Shown here: positions 4,530-54,291 of the stretch, in pieces | Numbering within the stretch: position 1 is the stretch's first letter | Layout: each line of letters opens with the position of its first letter | DNA from: Escherichia phage EI-SP-GF | Sequence record: OR992645.1 | Reading direction: 5' to 3' (one strand) | Length of the DNA stretch: 64,000 bases | Translations under genes and position numbers: made by a program | Notes under the pieces: model-generated | The model's database searches: none | What the model was told of the DNA's origin: nothing | What the model saw: the letters and a program-made list of their open reading frames with translations, nothing else

Positions 4530-4844
4530 GTGGAGTTGGATTTGGCGGCATTGTACGGTATCTGCATGGGTACCGTTGTCCCGATCTGTGTATGGGCTTT
4601 CAACCAGTGGCACACCAAATGGAAAGGTATTTCCAAGAGGTTGGATGAGCTGGAGAAAGACCTCATTTTAGTGAAAAATAGCATGGTTACAAAAGATAGA
4701 CTTGATTCCATTATCGAGACCCGGTTAAGTAAGCTAGAGGCCGATATTAACGACCTTAAGCAAGATGTCAGGACAGATGTCTCCGGTATCCGAGCTGATG
4801 TACAAAAGATTTTGCACATGCTTGTAGAGCATAGTAAAAGGTAA
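4530..4844 (+). CDS. small membrane-anchored coiled-coil protein
   Basis: GTG start after RBS AAGAGGAGG; hydrophobic N-terminal segment followed by a charged heptad-like region. Confidence 0.4.
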   Translation: MELDLAALYGICMGTVVPICVWAFNQWHTKWKGISKRLDELEKDLILVKNSMVTKDRLDSIIETRLSKLEADINDLKQDVRTDVSGIRADVQKILHMLVEHSKR

Positions 4845-4931
4845 ACAAAGGTAAGAACGGTAAGGATGCCGTTCTTGCATTTTGTTCTCTAAAGTGTTAA
4901 AATAGTCCTTAAGGAATTTTCTCAGGAGAAT

Positions 4932-5978
4932 GTGATGACTAAACCAGTTATCCCTCTCGATATTTGGGCCAATCAGGATGTTGTGCTTGAAAATACAGGA
5001 GAGTTGAACAAGTCTCAACCGAACAAAGAAGAGAGATTGAAAGGTTGGGATATGACACAAAGGATAGCATGTGAAGTTGTTAACTTTGAACTCCACATGC
5101 TCTCTGCGTGGCTAAAGCATTTAACAGAAGATGTTGTCCCTGGATGGGATAATAGATTCTTAAGGGTCACTAATAATCTGGCAGACGTTCCAGACAAAGC
5201 TGCTGCACGTAAAGTCCTCAATGTATACTCGCCTGAAGAAATGGATGACCTGTATGTTGACAAGACTGGGGACACAATGACCCAGACTCAAACTTTGGGT
5301 CTTCAAAGAATCGAGTTTGCATCCGCGTCAACAGACAATGCAGCGATATACACCACCATAACTCCAGACAAAACGATGATGGATTTCTGGATTATGGACA
5401 ACATCGGCGGCGCTGACGGCACAGACCTTGATGATCCTTCTCACCAAATAGACGGTTTCCGTTGGAGATTTCAACCTTCTGGTGGGCAGCCTGTGTTTTC
5501 GGCTATGAAGCTTAATGCTATAACTGCCAACCGTGCAAGACTGGCTATCCAAGGGAATCTTGAATGCAATGATGCAAAAAGCTCCTCTGCAAATGCTAAT
5601 GCGGTAACGATACCAAGAGCCACTGTTAATGGACAACAATCCTGCGGCAGCGCTCAAATAGGTGGAAGAGTGGATTGTAACGATAACACCGCCAGGGGTC
5701 AATATGCAACAGTTGGTGGGAGAAACGTGGTCCGCAGGGTAAATGGTAGTAGCGCAGATAGCAGTGGTAACCTTACTATTCCTATGCCTAGTAGGGGTGT
5801 TGAAGATGTAAGGATAGCAAACCGTTTCAGAACCACCTACAGAGAATCAAGAGTATACCCTGGGCATGTAATGTGCTCCGGCAATTACGCCTATAAACAC
5901 CCGTATCAAGGCGACTATTGGACTGGTGCCATTCAAAAATTTGTAAACGGTCAATGGATCACTATATCTTATGCTTAA
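4932..5978 (+). CDS. tail fibre protein, paralog B (348 aa)
   Basis: Colinear similarity to the 2879-3919 product (DKTGDTMT, LGLQRI, FRWRFQP, LNAITANRA, C-terminal KFVNGQWITISYA); start may be the ATG at 4935. Confidence 0.6.
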   Translation: MMTKPVIPLDIWANQDVVLENTGELNKSQPNKEERLKGWDMTQRIACEVVNFELHMLSAWLKHLTEDVVPGWDNRFLRVTNNLADVPDKAAARKVLNVYSPEEMDDLYVDKTGDTMTQTQTLGLQRIEFASASTDNAAIYTTITPDKTMMDFWIMDNIGGADGTDLDDPSHQIDGFRWRFQPSGGQPVFSAMKLNAITANRARLAIQGNLECNDAKSSSANANAVTIPRATVNGQQSCGSAQIGGRVDCNDNTARGQYATVGGRNVVRRVNGSSADSSGNLTIPMPSRGVEDVRIANRFRTTYRESRVYPGHVMCSGNYAYKHPYQGDYWTGAIQKFVNGQWITISYA

Positions 5979-5987
5979 AGAGGGTAA

Positions 5988-6254
5988 ATGAAATTAACTC
6001 AGTTTTTATGGGGGTTGGTTGCGGCATCGGATGACCCTACGAAAGTGTCCCAATCTAAGCTATGGTCAAACATAGGCATGGCAGTGATGACTGGGGTGTT
6101 TATTCATATGGGGTACAATGATACGCTTCCTGAATGGTATGCGTGGATATACGCACCTTCAGTAGCCTGCCCCCAGCTTATTAGCAAATTCATCTCGCTC
6201 CGGTGGGGTTGCCAGCACCCTGACCACGTTAAAAACGAAGAGCAAAAAGCTTAA
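5988..6254 (+). CDS. small hypothetical protein downstream of fibre B
   Basis: 88-aa ORF with RBS AGAGGG; hydrophobic stretch. Confidence 0.4.
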   Translation: MKLTQFLWGLVAASDDPTKVSQSKLWSNIGMAVMTGVFIHMGYNDTLPEWYAWIYAPSVACPQLISKFISLRWGCQHPDHVKNEEQKA

Positions 6255-45663: not shown

Positions 45664-45974
45664 TACTTGAAAATCCCTGGCACATCAAGTATAAGGAGGA
45701 TTTCTAAAATGGATTTCCTCCTTTTGATATTTTACCTAGCCGGATATTTTAAAATTCTTAGAAAATCAGAAAATGGATCGAAAACTAAAATGGATTTTTC
45801 AAGACAGGCGCGATAAGATGTGCTGCTCATTCTATCGTTCGCACCGTACTTTAAGTTACTATTCCAGATTTTCCGCACATACCCTCACCCTTCTACCAGA
45901 ACTTTCCCAGCTTACCTTTGACCTTTTATAACAATAAGCCCATTATTCTCAGTAGGTTTTGATACATCTCTCTC

Positions 45975-46062
45975 AGTACTCGATCTGTTTTTCGTTTCAA
46001 AGATTGAATTTTCTGAAAATTTTTCTCGATAAATTTCTTAGTACTCGATCTGTTTTTCGTTT
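45975..46062. repeat. tandem repeat in an AT-rich non-coding region
   Basis: AGTACTCGATCTGTTTTTCGTTT at about 45975 and 46040 (65-bp period) with degenerate further copies (CGATTTTTCGTTTTC, TTTTCTGAAAAT/TTTTCTGGAAAT). Confidence 0.6.
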
Positions 46063-46267
46063 TCTGAATCAGATTTTCTGGAAATCGTTCCGGAGCTCGA
46101 CCTGAAATTTTTGGGGACGAAATCGATTTTTCGTTTTCGGAAATGGATTTTTAAAATTTGTATATGGAAATATTTAAGGAGGTATTATTTTATATAGAAT
46201 TGTCACGGTAGGTAATTAGCATGCTAACTAAATTTATGAAATGCGAAAAGTTCTCATTTAGAATTTT

Positions 46268-47591: not shown

Positions 47592-47619
47592 TTGACACGC
47601 TGCAAAATTAAAGTAAACT
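47592..47619 (+). promoter_or_regulatory. sigma70-like promoter
   Basis: TTGACA-16 nt-TAAACT, followed by leader hairpin GGCGGGAA-TGTT-TCCCGCC. Confidence 0.5.
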
Positions 47620-47667: not shown

Positions 47668-48063
47668 ATGAATAAGAACGTACGCCGCATCATGAACGAA
47701 CTGGCAAACGATGAAAAAATTATTGATATGCATTTGGTCAACATTTGCCGCCGTTGTGTAACATATAACAACCGCGCCGCAAAAGCGCGTGAGATGAACG
47801 CAAAAGGCACCTTAAAGCCCTTTCAGGTGGTTGTAAAATCTATAACTAATGCAGCAGGCCAGGCGCATGACCACAACAACGAGAGCACTAATATTGATCC
47901 GTCTTACGTAATGAAACGGATCCGGACTTGCAAGAATAAAGATCAGGTGTATAACGTCATAGATTGGCTGGACTCCATGGGCGATGTTGTTTATAATAGG
48001 TTTTCTGCAGCTATCGAGATCCAGCTTGACAGACTGGACGGGAAAGTACTGAAAACTTACTAA
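47668..48063 (+). CDS. small early-region protein
   Basis: 131 aa; RBS AAAGGAAAAAG. Confidence 0.5.
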   Translation: MNKNVRRIMNELANDEKIIDMHLVNICRRCVTYNNRAAKAREMNAKGTLKPFQVVVKSITNAAGQAHDHNNESTNIDPSYVMKRIRTCKNKDQVYNVIDWLDSMGDVVYNRFSAAIEIQLDRLDGKVLKTY

Positions 48064-48074
48064 GTTTATTTTTA

Positions 48075-48111
48075 GATGGCCTTGACTCCAGGGCCATCAA
48101 TAAAGTAAACT
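48075..48111 (+). promoter_or_regulatory. palindrome-embedded promoter element, copy 1
   Basis: GATGGCC-TTGACTCCAG-GGCCATC hairpin with TTGACT as -35 and TAAACT 18 nt downstream. Confidence 0.5.
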
Positions 48112-48142
48112 AATCCCAGTTAAGCTAAAAGGGGGCTTAAAG

Positions 48143-48262
48143 ATGAGCACTACACGCCAGCACACAAAGGTAACTATTATCGTTTGCATCATTGGTTATA
48201 TCCTGGCGCAAATGTTGATGGGTAGCGCCAACAGTGTCGCAAAATTTTTCTTAAACTTTTAA
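48143..48262 (+). CDS. small hydrophobic peptide (39 aa)
   Basis: Hand-translated: MSTTRQHTKVTIIVCIIGYILAQMLMGSANSVAKFFLNF; RBS AGGGGG; directly after promoter element copy 1; under the track threshold. Confidence 0.3.
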   Translation: MSTTRQHTKVTIIVCIIGYILAQMLMGSANSVAKFFLNF

Positions 48263-48290
48263 TTGACAAGCTAACTTAGATCAGTATACT
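48263..48290 (+). promoter_or_regulatory. sigma70-like promoter
   Basis: TTGACA-16 nt-TATACT; leader hairpin GGGAAAACTTCCC downstream. Confidence 0.55.
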
Positions 48291-48340
48291 AAACACATCA
48301 ACGGGAAAACTTCCCAGAACACACAAAAGGAGAAAACACC

Positions 48341-48682
48341 ATGACTACTATGACCGCCGCAGAAAAAGCTATTCAGATCGCTGCCCTGAAAAAACAGATC
48401 GCAGACCTTGAGAATAAGATCGATAACTTTGAAATCGACGAGGACAAGTACGACGAAAACTATGATGAATGGTTAGACGAGATCTACGGCGAAATTATGA
48501 TCGGAAACATTTCTTTTCTTCCGTCGCGTATCCTCAAGGAGCTAGATCCTATCGCTTACCGCTGCGGATTTAGCGACTACATCGACAGCCTGGATATTGA
48601 GGACGATGAAGAATACCAGGAATTACAGACAGAGTTGGAAGAAGCAAAAGAAGAGCTTGCGGAGCTGGAAGAAAACGAGTAA
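48341..48682 (+). CDS. highly acidic coiled-coil protein
   Basis: 113 aa, strongly D/E-rich (DEDKYDENYDEWLDE, ELEEAKEELAELEENE); RBS AAGGAGA. Confidence 0.5.
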   Translation: MTTMTAAEKAIQIAALKKQIADLENKIDNFEIDEDKYDENYDEWLDEIYGEIMIGNISFLPSRILKELDPIAYRCGFSDYIDSLDIEDDEEYQELQTELEEAKEELAELEENE

Positions 48683-48693
48683 GATTATTTTTA

Positions 48694-48730
48694 GATGGCC
48701 TTGACTCCAGGGCCATCAATAAAGTAAACT
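48694..48730 (+). promoter_or_regulatory. palindrome-embedded promoter element, copy 2
   Basis: Identical to copy 1 (GATGGCCTTGACTCCAGGGCCATCAATAAAGTAAACT). Confidence 0.5.
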
Positions 48731-48771
48731 TTATACTGTTAACACTGAACTAATGCATAGGAGTTAAAACC

Positions 48772-49017
48772 ATGGCAGCACTAATCACTAAATATTACGC
48801 CCCTACCAACACCAAAAGCGCCCGTATCATGGTAAAAGGCTTCGGACGTAAAAAGGTTTACACCTGGGATTATTCCCTAGACATGGAAGACAACTACACC
48901 AACGCGATGACTGATTTTATTAATGAACTAAATAAGCAGATCTTAACCAATTATAAGGTGACCGACATCGCCTATGTTGGGGAAGGTGGGATCTGTTTTG
49001 TCGGTATTGTCAAATAA
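48772..49017 (+). CDS. small early-region protein
   Basis: 81 aa; RBS TAGGAG. Confidence 0.45.
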   Translation: MAALITKYYAPTNTKSARIMVKGFGRKKVYTWDYSLDMEDNYTNAMTDFINELNKQILTNYKVTDIAYVGEGGICFVGIVK

Positions 49018-49092
49018 ACTGTTTTTTCGGTGGCCCTGGTGGCAGGGCCATCTATAAAGATAGTTTATTAACACCATGAAAGGAGAAAGTAC

Positions 49093-49446
49093 ATGATCAG
49101 CGGGGCTAGTTTTATTATTGGCGCTATTGCTACAGCTTTAATTGTAAACAAGATCCAGGATAAAAAGGAAAGAGGAAGTACCGCCCTTGCAGAATATCCA
49201 TTTTGGACATTCAACGATAACGAAGATTATATTATAAAGTATAAAAATAAAGAAGGTTACCAAGTAACACCGCGACCGATCCCGGCTTACAAGATGCAGG
49301 AAACACTATACCGCTTGGAGGCAGGGGGCGCAAAAATTGTGGACTTTTGGGGATACGATCACACAGATCAGGAAGTTATAAAGCGCCGTATCCGGGCTAT
49401 TCAGGCCAATATTGAAGTTAGCAAGGGGGGAATATATGAAGATTAA
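49093..49446 (+). CDS. small membrane-anchored protein
   Basis: 117 aa with hydrophobic N-terminus ISGASFIIGAIATALIV; RBS AAAGGAGAAAG. Confidence 0.45.
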   Translation: MISGASFIIGAIATALIVNKIQDKKERGSTALAEYPFWTFNDNEDYIIKYKNKEGYQVTPRPIPAYKMQETLYRLEAGGAKIVDFWGYDHTDQEVIKRRIRAIQANIEVSKGGIYED

Positions 49447-49633
49447 TTTTGAGAAAATTGTAAAGCGATCTCATGATTCCGAAGAGCTGCCGGAACGCCG
49501 CCAGCGTAACAATAAACTGAATAAGCCAAAAAGATTTGGGAAGATCTGGCGGAATCATTATGATCGTAAATTGCCGGGCCTCCTTTTGGAACGTGAACGG
49601 CAGGCGGAACGATACCGCCACAAAGGCAACTAA
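49436..49633 (+). CDS. small basic protein
   Basis: Start at ATG (MKINFEK) after AAGGGGGG; Arg/Lys-rich; canonical terminator downstream. Confidence 0.4.
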   Translation: MKINFEKIVKRSHDSEELPERRQRNNKLNKPKRFGKIWRNHYDRKLPGLLLERERQAERYRHKGN

Positions 49634-49641
49634 CAACCAAC

Positions 49642-49670
49642 GCCCCGCCATCGTGCGGGGCTTTTTATTT
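49642..49670 (+). terminator. Rho-independent terminator
   Basis: GCCCCGC-CATCGT-GCGGGGC followed by TTTTTATTT. Confidence 0.6.
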
Positions 49671-49791
49671 CTACCCTACAAATAGCGCCCCTGGTTGGCC
49701 CCACAACGCCCTAAAAGCCCCCTACCCATGCAATCCCCTTTCTTAACCTGAAAACATCGTCAAAGGCTGTTTTAAAGCGTTAAAAATATTG

Positions 49792-49819
49792 TTGACATCT
49801 AAAATATTCTAGATATACT
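49792..49819 (+). promoter_or_regulatory. sigma70-like promoter
   Basis: TTGACA-16 nt-TATACT. Confidence 0.55.
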
Positions 49820-49854
49820 AATCACATCAAAGCGAGAAGTAAGGAGTAAACGCC

Positions 49855-50115
49855 ATGCGTAAATTGAAAAATTTTGATAAAGTCGATGTTGTCCTAAATA
49901 ATTTTTACTACTGCAATAACAAGGCCGTTTGGTGGCGTGATAGTTCCACCGATAAAGTCAAGGCGCGCTTTCTCCAGGGGCACTGGCAAGGCCGCCCAGT
50001 GATTAAAATCATGGGGCAATTGGTAGCGTTTAAAAATTGCCGCCGTGTTGATGACGTTGAAGAGATTTTAAACATTTTGCGCCACAATAATTTAAAAAAT
50101 AGTGTTGACAAGTAA
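49855..50115 (+). CDS. small early-region protein
   Basis: 86 aa; RBS TAAGGAG. Confidence 0.45.
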   Translation: MRKLKNFDKVDVVLNNFYYCNNKAVWWRDSSTDKVKARFLQGHWQGRPVIKIMGQLVAFKNCRRVDDVEEILNILRHNNLKNSVDK

Positions 50116-50132
50116 ATCTCAATAAGTATACT
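50105..50132 (+). promoter_or_regulatory. sigma70-like promoter
   Basis: TTGACA-16 nt-TATACT overlapping the end of the upstream gene; leader hairpin GGCGGGAAAACTTCCCGCC. Confidence 0.55.
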
Positions 50133-50189
50133 TAAACACACAGGCGGGAAAACTTCCCGCCACCAACAAAGAAAATAGGAGAAAATATC

Positions 50190-50813
50190 ATGACTACCGT
50201 TAACATTACCACAGGTTACAATTTAGCTTTCGACGTGCTGACCGACGAACAAAAAGAAAAAGCCGTGGAAATGGTCCGCGAAAGAGAAGAACACAGCGGG
50301 GATAACTTTTTTGCAGAAAGTGTAATTGAGTACTATAAAGAATATGTTTTTCCAGAGTACGGCCTTGAAGATACCGATGTACATTGGTCAGGCTTTTGGT
50401 GCCAGGGTGACGGCGCGTCAATCAGTGCGGAAAACGTGGATTTAGAAAAATTCTTGCGTAAAGTCAAGTCTCTGACTAAATTCCGCTCAATTCGTCACTT
50501 GTTCGGCACAATGCACGATGGCGAGTTATCCGCAAGTGTTGAGCGTGATCCATATAGCCGCTATAGTCACGAAAACACTGTAAACGGGTACATCGATACT
50601 ACATGGCTAGACCTGACCACCAAGCAAGAAAACAAAGTGGAAGATCTGGAAGAGCTGATCACCGAGACGGTACGGGAGTTATCCCGCAAGGTTTACGTAG
50701 ACCTGGAGGAGGCCTATCTAGAACAGTTCACTACCGAAAACCTGATCGGCCTTATTGAGGCCAATGATTGGCGGTTTGATGTCGATGAACACGGTGAGAT
50801 GACTTTTTCATAA
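50190..50813 (+). CDS. acidic early-region protein (207 aa)
   Basis: RBS ATAGGAGAAAA; D/E-rich throughout. Confidence 0.5.
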   Translation: MTTVNITTGYNLAFDVLTDEQKEKAVEMVREREEHSGDNFFAESVIEYYKEYVFPEYGLEDTDVHWSGFWCQGDGASISAENVDLEKFLRKVKSLTKFRSIRHLFGTMHDGELSASVERDPYSRYSHENTVNGYIDTTWLDLTTKQENKVEDLEELITETVRELSRKVYVDLEEAYLEQFTTENLIGLIEANDWRFDVDEHGEMTFS

Positions 50814-50821
50814 ATAAAGTG

Positions 50822-50849
50822 TTGCAATAACCTAAAAACCTGCTATATT
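50822..50849 (+). promoter_or_regulatory. sigma70-like promoter
   Basis: TTGCAA-16 nt-TATATT; leader hairpin GGGGCAAGACGTTTGCCCC. Confidence 0.45.
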
Positions 50850-50902
50850 AAAACTCAAGGGGCAAGACGTTTGCCCCCACACAAAACAAAGAGGTAAACA
50901 TT

Positions 50903-51283
50903 ATGAAAAACACTACTAAAGCTATTGACACCGTTATGTTTAACCTGGTTACCTTTCGCGAGGATATGAAAGATCTTCCACGTGAAACAGTGTGCGATCA
51001 CATTGAAAACTATCGCAAACTAATCAAAGAGTTGCCTTTAAAACGTGATCAGTATGCGGCTAACGCCATGCTTAATGCCATGATCAAAAAGATGATCCAG
51101 TGTGATTTAACTTTGGCCTATGACTATGCTGGTGGTCGTTTTGCAGTATACAATCAGCCCGTGCCCGGTATGGGCACCACCGAAGAATTGCACGCGCTCA
51201 ATCTAAAACAAGACGTGTGGGATAGTATGCCCCGCGTGGTGGTGTGGGCAGAAAGCGGAAAGATTTACGGCGATAATTTTTAA
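50903..51283 (+). CDS. small early-region protein
   Basis: 126 aa; RBS AAAGAGGTAAAC. Confidence 0.5.
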   Translation: MKNTTKAIDTVMFNLVTFREDMKDLPRETVCDHIENYRKLIKELPLKRDQYAANAMLNAMIKKMIQCDLTLAYDYAGGRFAVYNQPVPGMGTTEELHALNLKQDVWDSMPRVVVWAESGKIYGDNF

Positions 51284-51293
51284 TCAGGTAACA

Positions 51294-51319
51294 GGCGGCA
51301 TATTTGCCGCCTTATTGTT
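51294..51319 (+). terminator. Rho-independent terminator
   Basis: GGCGGCA-TATT-TGCCGCC followed by TTATTGTT. Confidence 0.5.
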
Positions 51320-51347
51320 AAACAGAACTGCAAAAGAGGTACATAGA

Positions 51348-51719
51348 ATGGAATTTATTATTTTGGCTGTATTGGTTGCCTTGTTTAACGCCTGGATCGC
51401 TGGCAAGATGGGCAGATCCGCCTTTTTATGGTTTATTATATCTATTTTCCTGGGGGTGGTTGCAACTATTGTATTGGTTATCCTTGCAATTGTTGACAAG
51501 GGGAATAATAGAAAGGGTAAAGTATTTTCAGACCTGTACGACGCTCAAACGTTTGTCAACGCCTATTATAGTGATCTTCCAGTCTCCCTACGCTGCAGCC
51601 TGGCACAACAGGTTTTTGATGAGGCTAAAACCAGAGATCAAGCCCATGAGATATGTTTAACTGAGGCGGATCGCCTATTTGAGAGGAATAGAAAATATGT
51701 GGGCCAACCGTTTAAATAA
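51348..51719 (+). CDS. small membrane protein
   Basis: Start at ATG (MEFIILAV) after AAAGAGG; two hydrophobic segments. Confidence 0.45.
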   Translation: MEFIILAVLVALFNAWIAGKMGRSAFLWFIISIFLGVVATIVLVILAIVDKGNNRKGKVFSDLYDAQTFVNAYYSDLPVSLRCSLAQQVFDEAKTRDQAHEICLTEADRLFERNRKYVGQPFK

Positions 51720-51942
51720 TGCCACGTTAATTAATTCCTTTAGTGAAGATTTGAAGCCAGCCGCCTGGCGTGACGGATTCAATAACGAACGCTTTATTTT
51801 CAGGCCTGATCTTGAGGAATTTTATAACAATGGATCGAACAACAGCGGAGATAATTTTTCTTGTGGTGTGTGTCGTGATAGGACTCCTGGGGGCCATTGT
51901 AGATCGCGTCACTACTACCGGGAGGAAAGGGGGAGACGATGA
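51697..51942 (+). CDS. small early-region protein
   Basis: Start at ATG (MWANRL) after GAGAGGAA; overlaps the upstream gene by about 23 nt. Confidence 0.35.
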   Translation: MWANRLNNATLINSFSEDLKPAAWRDGFNNERFIFRPDLEEFYNNGSNNSGDNFSCGVCRDRTPGGHCRSRHYYREERGRR

Positions 51943-52062
51943 CAACCAAGGATAAGCCATGCACCGATAAGGTGCGCCGCGTTATGGTATGGCTTGAGAT
52001 TATCGCCCTTGAAATATTGCTAGGCGTAGGGATGTACTTTATCGCTGTAAGTAACTAGGAAC

Positions 52063-52091
52063 GGCCCCCGATCATGGGGGCCTATCTTTTT
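52063..52091 (+). terminator. Rho-independent terminator
   Basis: GGCCCCC-GATCAT-GGGGGCC followed by TATCTTTTT. Confidence 0.55.
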
Positions 52092-52197
52092 AAAAAATTT
52101 TTCTTCCGTGGTGTTGCAATCCGGTCCGGAATGTGGATAATAACAATCAACGGGGAGCTAATCCTCACCACCACAAAAACCAGAAAGGAGAAACAAA

Positions 52198-52398
52198 ATG
52201 AGCAACAATATCCGCGTTATTAACTTCAAAAAAGAAGAAAAAATTGCCGTGCTGATTGACGGTCAAGAAATCTTCAAGGGCGACTATGAAGATCATCAAA
52301 CGGCGATTAGTATCACTCGCGTGATTGGTTACCATAATTTTTACCCCCAAGGAGCTGAGGCAGCGGTTAAACGAATCAAAGAGATTGTAGGCCTGTAA
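52198..52398 (+). CDS. small early-region protein
   Basis: 66 aa; RBS AAAGGAGAAAC. Confidence 0.45.
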   Translation: MSNNIRVINFKKEEKIAVLIDGQEIFKGDYEDHQTAISITRVIGYHNFYPQGAEAAVKRIKEIVGL

Positions 52399-52410
52399 AA
52401 TTTATTTTTA

Positions 52411-52447
52411 GATGGCCTTGACTCCAGGGCCATCAATAAAGTAAATT
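52411..52447 (+). promoter_or_regulatory. palindrome-embedded promoter element, copy 3
   Basis: GATGGCCTTGACTCCAGGGCCATCAATAAAGTAAATT; same element as at 48075 and 48694. Confidence 0.5.
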
Positions 52448-52491
52448 TAAACCCTGTTAAAATACCACGCAGTTAACAAGGAGTGATAGAC

Positions 52492-52791
52492 ATGTTTATC
52501 CAGGCTAATAATCTTTATTTCTTTGATGGTCAGATCGTAGATGGTGTGGAAGTGGAGATCACTGGGTGCCCTGGCGGTCAGGCTATGACTTTTCGGAATA
52601 ATGCCTTTGATGATTCTCATATCGTTATGAGAATGGAAGTTACGAAGCTGGATGACAAGAAAACACTCATTGACTATTCTGTGAAAGATCATCCAGACTA
52701 CCACATGATCTATGGTGATTTGTGCATTGTTGACCGTGACAAGGTGAGCGGCATTGTGATCGCTATTGTGAACGATGTTTTCTCAAACTAA
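52492..52791 (+). CDS. small early-region protein
   Basis: Start at ATG (MFIQANN) after AAGGAG. Confidence 0.45.
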   Translation: MFIQANNLYFFDGQIVDGVEVEITGCPGGQAMTFRNNAFDDSHIVMRMEVTKLDDKKTLIDYSVKDHPDYHMIYGDLCIVDRDKVSGIVIAIVNDVFSN

Positions 52792-53968: not shown

Positions 53969-54019
53969 ATAAATCAAAGGGAGCAACAAGCCCCACCAAC
54001 CACAAAGAGGATAAAAATC

Positions 54020-54199
54020 ATGGCTATTATTGCAAAGACCGAGATCGTAGGCTTAGATTCTATTCTCCTCGCATATGAGGAAGCTATAGAAATGTATGTG
54101 GTTTCCTATGGTGAGTATATCCGTGAATATGAATCTATTGATCTAGCTTTTGAATGTTATATTCGCCAGGTTAATAAAGCGTACGATGATTATCGTTAA
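54020..54199 (+). CDS. small early-region protein (59 aa, absent from ORF track)
   Basis: Hand-translated MAIIAKTEIVGLDSILLAYEEAIEMYVVSYGEYIREYESIDLAFECYIRQVNKAYDDYR; RBS AAAGAGGATAAAAATC identical in style to other leaders. Confidence 0.4.
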   Translation: MAIIAKTEIVGLDSILLAYEEAIEMYVVSYGEYIREYESIDLAFECYIRQVNKAYDDYR

Positions 54200-54291
54200 A
54201 ATAGTTTGACAACAAACAACCATCTAACAAAGCATAATACATAAGGTGGTAGAATGATCCGCCACCCCGGAACAAAGAAGAGGTAAACACC

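Follow-up and report, generated by a model that had tools for sequence, protein, structure and literature searches.

A repeated two-tier RNA hairpin between early genes of the rV5-like Escherichia phage EI-SP-GF, with likeness to the RNase III sites of phage T7

Introduction

The RNase III sites of the early region of phage T7 (R0.3, R0.5, R1, R1.1 and R1.3) are intercistronic hairpins in early transcripts made by the host RNA polymerase, and are the nearest described counterparts of the element analysed here, a hairpin repeated between early genes of Escherichia phage EI-SP-GF. To our knowledge, few phage RNase III sites are known outside T7, T3 and lambda. The minimal Escherichia coli RNase III substrate has an 11-base-pair (bp) helix between the scissile bond and the tetraloop (Pertzev and Nicholson, PMC1540722). 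In its distal box, a U-A pair comes first and then a U.G pair, which is stringently required; its middle box has 2 bp, and its proximal box (pb) has 4 bp, of which position 4 is mismatched in natural R1.1 (PMC1540722). The proximal-box consensus, which comes from the minimal substrate, is G-C at pb1, A-U or U-A at pb2, A-U at pb3, and A-U, U-A or a mismatch at pb4 (PMC1540722). RNase III sites of E. coli are enriched in intergenic regions within transcripts (PMC6212723).

A second described system, the PeSLs (promoter-early stem-loops) of T4-like phages, combines a stem-loop, often between or over promoter boxes, with a position in the stop-to-start gap of ORFan regions, and PeSLs recombine (PMC2839356; PMC4122927). 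The promoters of PeSLs have exactly the sigma-70 consensus, and their activity has been demonstrated (PMC2839356).

The window analysed was the whole 64,000-nucleotide (nt) stretch of EI-SP-GF (sequence record OR992645.1). A sequence-only reading of it had described three copies of a 37-nt promoter element whose -35 hexamer lies within a palindrome. The analysis reported here found four copies of a longer repeat, whose conserved feature was the structure of the sense-strand RNA. For this hairpin, processing of the RNase III type combined with stabilisation of polycistronic early messenger RNA (mRNA) was the best explanation, held with about even confidence.

Results

Copies and distribution of the repeat

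The 24-nt core GATGGCCTTGACTCCAGGGCCATC occurred exactly at 48075-48098, 48694-48717 and 52411-52434 of the + strand, as the sequence-only reading had noticed, and in none of 100 dinucleotide-preserving shuffles (0 expected by chance). The repeat was therefore real as described, but its unit was 51 nt rather than 37 nt (48061-48111, 48680-48730 and 52397-52447; 94-100% identity). The related hairpin that had been noticed near 49030 was recovered by repeat search as a fourth, diverged copy (49015-49065; 69% identity), and all four copies lay within 4.4 kb of ORFan early genes. A TAA stop codon stood at a fixed distance before each of copies 1, 2, 4 and 3 (48061-63, 48680-82, 49015-17 and 52396-98), ending open reading frames (ORFs) of 131, 113, 81 and 66 amino acids (aa), respectively; the stop codon claimed before copies 1-3 was thus confirmed and was also found before copy 4.

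Copy 1 (48063..48111, + strand; next ATG at 48143) had a lower stem at 48063-48072/48102-48111 and an upper stem at 48075-48084/48089-48098, with an internal loop of UA on the 5' side (48073-74) and AAU on the 3' side (48099-48101), and an ACUC tetraloop (48085-48088). Its RNA fold was -25.0 kcal/mol (z -6.2), and it scored 83.6 bits with the covariance model and matched the structural descriptor. Copy 2 (48682..48730, + strand; next ATG at 48772) was built like copy 1 but for one A.A mismatch in its lower stem (-22.3 kcal/mol, z -5.3; 80.4 bits). Copy 3 (52398..52448, + strand; next ATG at 52492) had an 11-bp lower stem, an upper stem at 52411-52420/52425-52434, the loop ACUC, and AAU at 52435-52437 (-23.6 kcal/mol, z -6.3; 80.0 bits). 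The diverged copy 4 (49013..49069, + strand; next ATG at 49093) had a 14-bp lower stem (49013-49026/49056-49069), an upper stem that included a G.U pair (49029-49038/49043-49052), a GUGG tetraloop, UAU as the 3' internal loop (49053-55), and no -35-like hexamer; it folded at -32.1 kcal/mol (z -7.0), scored 77.7 bits, and differed from copies 1-3 by compensatory changes.

The covariance model found exactly four copies in the window, at 78-84 bits on the + strand and about 40 bits on the - strand, and none elsewhere in the rV5 genome (the remaining 75 kb). Deletion variants aside, every genome inspected carried four copies; Murica, isim, slur12, typing phage 14 and V18 were alike in this to EI-SP-GF. 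The search of related phage genomes proposed in the sequence-only reading was productive: by blastn, the element was found in 120 Vequintavirus records, at about 3 places in each, and at one place in a phi92-like phage, and nowhere else. The covariance model found no copy in distant relatives of the 113-aa gene (L128, L131-L134). The structural descriptor (an upper stem of 9-12 bp with U-A/U.G by the loop, then an internal loop and 6 bp or more of lower stem) matched only copies 1-3 in the window, with a background of 1 match in 20 shuffles, and relaxed descriptors found no other comparable two-tier hairpin there.

In the Murica record (L001), the equivalents of copies 4 and 3 (2520-2564 and 5907-5951) are annotated as terminators, and those of copies 1 and 2 are not. 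In Table S4 of the rV5 paper, the element is absent from both the promoters and the terminators (PMC3606486). A scan of 44-58 kb against Rfam 15 at permissive E-values gave no relevant family, the sole match overlapping any copy being rhtB (52393-52452; 23 bits vs a gathering score of 55, E = 4.1), and a full-text literature search for the sequence of the element gave no occurrence. The element is absent from Rfam and from the literature searched; its kind is already known. In the rV5 record (L136), a 285-nt 'terminator' feature (4772-5056) nearly coincides with ORF 196, and is probably a coordinate error.

Copies 1-3 also shared the motif C(A/T)GTTAA on their 3' side, 5-8 nt past the hairpin (CCCAGTTAAG, ACTGTTAAC and CCCTGTTAAA; regions 48112-48125, 48731-48745 and 52448-52462). 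It might mark a transcript start or a second processing site, or be due to chance.

RNA structure and covariation

Folded as sense-strand RNA, each copy formed an A/U lower stem of 10-14 bp and a G/C upper stem of 10 bp with one U.G (or G.U) pair, the two separated by a 2x3-nt internal loop and the upper one closed by a tetraloop. The inverted repeat described earlier was present, and its dimensions were revised to 10 bp with a 4-nt loop, counting the U.G pair, from 7 bp with a 10-nt loop. Folding energies of the four copies on the + strand were between -22 and -32 kcal/mol (z -5.3 to -7.0). For copies 1 and 4, the - strand folded at -17.6 and -20.2 kcal/mol, vs -25.0 and -32.1 kcal/mol on the + strand. 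When the copies were folded as DNA, the asymmetry between strands was nearly gone.

The alignment comprised 25 distinct copies from 10 phages (EI-SP-GF and nine others). In the upper stem, 100% of cells were paired, and the three positions that varied changed only from A-U to G.U, from C-G to U.G, and from U.G to C-G, always by substitution on the 5' arm, and these substitutions would make A.C mismatches on the opposite strand. Four pairs of the lower stem had double compensatory changes (GC/AU/GU, UA/CG, UA/GU/AU and AU/UA). Overall, 90.5% of cells were paired, vs at most 54% when the partners were slid, and none of 500 shuffles matched the observed pairing, the double-change cells or the covariation score. 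Two further phages agreed with the pattern of the alignment. Copy 4 and its orthologues kept the whole structure with the loops GUGG, GCUG, GUAG, GUAA and GUUG, and a copy-1 variant (L127) had a 5-nt loop, a re-paired lower stem and an altered spacing of the hexamers. The few independent events agree in pointing to selection on the structure of the sense-strand RNA, and the element is probably a sense-strand RNA element of some kind.

The near invariance of the upper stem of copies 1-3 across phages, which is beyond the needs of pairing, and the perfect DNA inverted repeat of the same copies would also be expected of a sequence-specific protein site, bound as RNA by a phage regulator, or bound as DNA by a dimeric regulator at GATGGCC-N10-GGCCATC overlapping a promoter, as the sequence-only reading had proposed. 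This explanation is very unlikely. The dimeric DNA-binding regulator was contradicted by substitutions confined to one arm and to wobble changes (A to G, C to U and U to C), which break the symmetry of the DNA and keep the pairing of the RNA, and by the covarying outer helix, which has no role in an operator; half-sites 17 bp apart from centre to centre would also be unusual for a dimer. For binding as RNA, the end of the hairpin lay at least 16 nt upstream of the Shine-Dalgarno sequence, unlike in known translational operators, and a translational operator was rejected on this distance. The flanking genes were all of unknown function, and no candidate regulator was identified.

Three other structures were tried and rejected. 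A DNA cruciform or operator did not agree with the asymmetric substitutions. A single-stranded DNA hairpin (N4-type promoter or origin) did not agree with the small asymmetry of the DNA folds, and no strand-exposing process is known here. Antitermination of the nut or put type was rejected on the arrangement of two copies 335 nt apart in one operon, and on a structure unlike boxB or put.

Promoter-like hexamers and comparison with PeSLs

The hexamers of the proposed promoter were present in copies 1 and 2 (TTGACT-18 nt-TAAACT; 48082-48111 and 48701-48730) and in copy 3 (TTGACT-18 nt-TAAATT; 52418-52447). The outer A/U helix of 10-14 bp encloses the inner stem, so that TAAACT lay within the structure, and not next to it. 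The '-35' hexamer TTGACT consisted of the last three bases of the upper stem and the first three bases of the loop, its 'TTG' being the U.G and U-A pairs plus the loop-closing pair. The '-10' hexamer TAAACT was formed by the outer part of the lower stem's 3' strand, and the positions that vary in it covaried with bases about 44 nt upstream; the change from TAAACT in copy 1 to TAAATT in copy 3 was compensated by a G to A change about 46 nt upstream (G-C to A-U).

A 9/12 hexamer match with an 18-nt spacer was near background (54 found vs 32 expected in 14 kb), and copy 4 and its 8 distinct orthologues had no -35. The promoter-like hexamers are most likely by-products of the RNA structure, and a sigma-70 promoter with its -35 in a palindrome was not upheld as the conserved feature; copies 1-3 may nonetheless have weak promoter activity.

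The repeats resemble the PeSLs of RB49, phi1, T4/PST and KVP40/nt-1, which are also repeated motifs of about 50-100 nt filling the stop-to-start gap in ORFan-rich early regions, with an AT-rich tract, sigma-70-like hexamers and a stem-loop able to overlap the promoter boxes, and whose inter-copy recombination deletes or moves ORFan cassettes (PMC2839356, PMC4122927). They differ in that the PeSL promoter is a consensus promoter, vs 9/12 here and none in one of the four copies, and in that PeSL hairpins are short, polyG/polyC and variably placed, whereas the conserved part here is a fixed, covarying two-tier hairpin; the phage group here is Vequintavirinae.

As a composite of the PeSL type, copies 1-3 would be internal sigma-70 promoters (TTGACT-18-TAAACT, with a T-rich upstream tract), the stem-loop would attenuate incoming transcription, and the repeats would move ORFans with their own regulation. 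This explanation is improbable, and it can coexist with RNA processing. The hexamers and their spacing in copies 1-3 agree with it, as does TTGAC, which is invariant among the 17 distinct orthologues of these copies, unlike loop positions 3-4, which vary. TAAACT is the -10 of the predicted rV5 promoter P194, and the interval that holds copy 3, between the terminators t181 and t177, has no predicted promoter in the rV5 paper (PMC3606486, Table S4). Placement and recombination are alike in the T4-like PeSLs (PMC2839356, PMC4122927), and recombination footprints were seen here. However, the 9/12 match is of a kind expected 32 times by chance in 14 kb, and the PeSL promoters and the phage's own promoters fit the consensus better (the early promoters of EI-SP-GF had 10-12/12 consensus matches and 16-17 nt spacers). 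The structure of copy 4 was kept in every phage without a -35, the L127 variant shifted the spacing, the -10 positions covaried with the 5' arm, and there was no U-tract for intrinsic termination. The same CCUUG...CAGGG stem also occurred in Pseudomonas-type prophages, with GNRA loops and no promoter.

Likeness to T7 RNase III sites

The five T7 early sites folded alike, with an upper stem of 9-10 bp, a tetraloop or pentaloop, an asymmetric internal loop with a 3-nt 3' side (UAU or AAU), and a lower stem, as in the phage element. T7 R1 combined an upper stem of 9 bp and a tetraloop with a lower stem and an internal loop of 2 nt on the 5' side and AAU on the 3' side, so that the 2/3 geometry of its internal loop was identical to that of the phage element; R0.5 and R1.1 had upper stems of 9-10 bp and UAU on the 3' side. 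The T7 sites also start at or just past the upstream stop codon, which in R0.5 is included in the lower stem. Counted from the loop, the pairs were CG UA UG AU CG UG GC GC AU AU in T7 R1.1, and GC UA UG CG CG GC GC UA AU GC in copies 1-3. The lower stem of the phage element is longer than in the T7 sites and fully paired, and rV5-type copies are nearly identical mutually, whereas the T7 sites differ more from each other.

In every copy, the internal loop was asymmetric, with 2 nt on the 5' side and 3 nt on the 3' side (UA/AAU or UC/UAU); in signals of the T7 type, such asymmetry restricts RNase III cleavage to a single strand. The 10-bp upper stem plus the first mismatch of this loop gives the 11-bp distance between cleavage site and tetraloop of the minimal substrate. 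The total helix of about two turns (at least 20 bp) was present in the four copies (20-24 bp) and conserved in the 25 distinct copies. In copies 1-3, U-A and U.G occupied pairs 2 and 3 from the loop, which are the distal-box positions, as in T7 R1.1; in copy 1 these were U48083-A48090 and U48082.G48091, with the closing pair G48084-C48089 (48082..48091, + strand), and likewise in copies 2 and 3. In the same copies, both middle-box positions and pb2 (A-U) were compatible, and pb4 was the A.A mismatch of the internal loop (U.C in natural R1.1).

The T7 cleavage coordinates, reportedly 1468, 3138 and 5887 (Dunn & Studier 1983), fell at the 3' end of the UAU/AAU loops in the folds. By likeness to R1, R0.5 and R1.1, RNase III cleavage is predicted just past the U that ends the 3' internal loop, at 48101/48102, 48720/48721, 49055/49056 and 52437/52438.

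In the mechanism that would best account for these observations, early polycistronic mRNAs made by host RNA polymerase from strong upstream consensus promoters (47592, 48263 and others) would include the element. Past the ORFan stop codon, the transcript would adopt a hairpin fold about 50 nt long, having 20-24 bp, in the form of a T7-type E. coli RNase III substrate. The enzyme would bind, guided in part by the U-A/U.G 'distal box' near the loop, and would nick the internal loop on its 3' side (...CAUCAAU^AAAG...). A stable hairpin at the 3' end of the upstream message would then block 3' exonucleases, the downstream cistron would gain a 5' end of its own, and neighbouring ORFans of one operon would come to differ in stability and expression. 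Near-identical copies of about 50 nt would double as joints of homologous recombination, at which ORFan cassettes are lost and exchanged.

Several observations weigh against RNase III processing. The covariance model gave no match in the T7 early region (L032), and there was no sequence homology to the T7 sites, so the relation would be one of functional analogy, not homology. At pb1 (U-A; consensus G-C) and pb3 (G-C; consensus A-U), the pairs do not follow the uR1.1 consensus, and the distal-box U.G is replaced by C-G in copy 4. In copies 1-3, conservation of the upper stem exceeds what RNase III is known to require, and in their loops AC at positions 1-2 is invariant, unlike positions 3-4, which vary; this excess of conservation leaves room for a second reader (a -35 function or another protein) or for gene conversion. 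The aligned phages are closely related (effective number of sequences 3.45), and independent compensatory events are therefore few, about 5-6. Only four sites were found in the 137-kb genome, so the signal is not in general use by the phage, and a search of the literature on transcriptomics or RNase III of Vequintavirus or rV5-like phages found no transcriptome or 5'-end map.

A hairpin that acts passively, as a barrier to 3' exonucleases or by pausing or attenuation (REP or PeSL stem-loop type), would also set cistron abundance, with no part for RNase III. The very stable, conserved sense-strand structure right after stop codons within operons agrees with this, and two copies are called terminators in Murica. 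A PeSL stem-loop without further features reduced a downstream reporter as strongly as rrnB T1 (PMC2839356). A barrier needs stability only, however, and the 2x3 internal loop, the U.G pair in a G/C stem and the fixed 10-bp length of the upper stem would be left unexplained; there was also no U-tract on either strand. A purely passive role is accordingly considered rather unlikely.

An intrinsic terminator was tried and rejected. The element is a G/C-rich intergenic hairpin like intrinsic terminators, but its flanks, U-rich 5' and A-rich 3', pair with each other; the 3' flank was AAUAAAGUAAA and the tail of the other strand UAAAAAUAAA, neither strand had a U-tract, and the copies were outside the list of terminator-like sequences.

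If the hairpins are RNase III sites, mRNA processing in the style of T7 extends to the large and widely used group of rV5-like coliphages. Phages of this group are common in phage-therapy and BASEL-type collections. The same reading, if true, would correct annotations of the element as 'terminator' (in some GenBank records) and as 'promoter' (in the sequence-only reading), and would offer a compact natural cassette of 50 nt for the insulation and stabilisation of cistrons. The biology would remain within known principles.

Hairpin family of Pseudomonas-type prophages

A scan of IMG/VR for the upper stem with a free loop gave three rV5-like loci only, plus a separate family of Pseudomonas type. 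The form of this family was gaUUUCCuc-GAUGGCCUUG-GNRA-CAGGGCCAUC-cGGGAAA as RNA and gaTTTCCtc-GATGGCCTTG-GNRA-CAGGGCCATC-cGGGAAA as DNA (loci L003-L031, L033, L054, L058, L072, L073, L075, L085, L091, L093 and L124; for example L004 at 3620 on the minus strand and L013 at 1754-1792, plus loci sampled through their flanks). The family was carried by Pseudomonas, Halopseudomonas and Ectopseudomonas prophages with lengths of about 35-60 kb. The hairpin was intergenic, just upstream of the ribosome-binding sites of early genes, with an HNH endonuclease next in L006 and L013. In 185,000 bacterial genomes, the same pattern mostly matched unrelated G/C hairpins (GGTGGCCCTG...CAGGGCCACC terminators), along with about 10 copies in Pseudomonas/Halopseudomonas prophages, and no copy in an E. 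coli chromosome that the phage might mimic.

The identity of the Pseudomonas-type stem to the rV5 element was forced in part by the search pattern, and the family was therefore re-sampled through its flanks only. Among the nine distinct cores obtained, U.G was at position 3 from the loop in 8/9 and U-A at position 2 in 7/9, and positions 1, 6 and 7 switched among GC, CG and AU. Being among the most conserved pairs of a covarying stem, the U.G pair argues for specific recognition, and its presence here without promoter context means that the 'TTG' of the rV5 element needs no promoter explanation. Conserved in two unrelated phage hairpin families, the U.G pair would give a simple signature for finding phage RNase III sites.

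The two families are alike in their 10-bp upper stem with U.G, small internal loop, lower stem, and intergenic position in early operons. The Pseudomonas-type family differs in its GNRA loops, its G/C-richer lower stem, its other hosts and its temperate phages, and common descent of the two families was not shown. A Rfam scan of eight Pseudomonas-type loci gave no relevant family, and a literature search found the sequence in no paper; the family is apparently undescribed.

Recombination between copies and exchange of cassettes

In magaca (L139) and in a second genome (L016), the 620 bp between copies 1 and 2 were missing (48112..48730), and one hybrid copy, with the 5' flank of copy 1 and the 3' flank of copy 2, was found in their place (6001-6066 in magaca; 208-273 in L016). 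The blastn segments on the two sides of the deletion overlapped only within the element. The deleted interval contains a 39-aa ORF, the promoter P192 and the 113-aa ORF. The near identity of the copies lets them act as joints of homologous recombination, and comparison of the sequences identifies the loss as a deletion through recombination between copies 1 and 2.

The cassette at 48262..48734 (+ strand) comprises a sigma-70 promoter (TTGACA-16-TATACT; 48263-48290), a stem-loop in the 5' untranslated region (5'-UTR), the 113-aa ORFan and copy 2. It was 93.7% identical over 474 nt to a segment of KKE7M (L135, 6582-7055), a phi92-like phage of another subfamily (Stephanstirmvirinae), and the homology stopped at the 3' end of the element. 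The mobile promoter cassette of the sequence-only reading therefore survives in its mobility, given the deletion by recombination and the cassette shared across subfamilies, and not in its promoter part. Its proposal of coordinated control likewise holds at the RNA level, the copies being confined to a subset of early genes. The footprints of recombination would mean that RNA-processing signals, and not promoter cassettes alone, can be joints of ORFan exchange between phages. KKE7M also had other short mosaic patches in common with the window, for example 54008-54201 at 92.8%.

A broader, speculative reading, thought unlikely, would make the hairpin a portable, sequence-defined module recognised by RNase III or by some other conserved RNA-binding factor of the host, its upper stem with the conserved U.G pair being common to lytic coliphages of two subfamilies and to Pseudomonas-type prophages by horizontal transfer or convergence. 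The element would then have a triple role, as a site of processing and stabilisation, as a weak promoter (copies 1-3) and as a recombination joint. If this were true, it would be the RNA-processing counterpart of the PeSL cassettes.

Context in the early region

The region of the window was 94-97% identical to more than 100 rV5-like coliphages (Vequintavirus), MaxTheCat and Murica being the closest matches. Between 44 and 58 kb, every gene was on the + strand, and the genes were short ORFs of unknown function; the ORFs flanking the hairpin copies all belonged to PHROGs of unknown function. Near-consensus sigma-70 promoters were interspersed among the early ORFs at 47592, 48263, 49792 and 50105, and intrinsic terminators lay in the same region at 49642, 51293, 52063 and 53197; these promoters and terminators correspond to those predicted for rV5 (PMC3606486, Table S4). 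The hairpin copies sat between cistrons within operons, with no terminator intervening.

In the operon of copies 2 and 4, a 65-aa ORF (49436-49633) resembled T7 gp1.1 (45% identity over 31 residues; pairwise E = 2e-4). The gp1.1 gene of T7 sits immediately downstream of the RNase III site R1.1.

A second repeated module was present at 48263-48327 and 50105-50170. It consisted of a near-consensus TTGACA-16-TATACT, followed by TAAACACA...GGGAAAACTTCCC (a 5'-UTR stem-loop), and looks more like a true PeSL-type cassette of promoter and stem-loop than the hairpin studied here does.

The non-coding stretch at 45959-46160 contained three diverged direct repeats of about 47-55 nt, spaced by 65-74 nt (..CAGTACTCGATCTGTTTTTCGTTT..). 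These could be protein-binding iterons or an origin-like region, and the stretch may be the 'non-coding' box of the rV5 map.

Seventeen records named 'Campylobacter phage' (for example MG065690 and MG065635; host Campylobacter jejuni) were 94-95% identical to this region, and their assignment to Campylobacter jejuni as a host looks doubtful.

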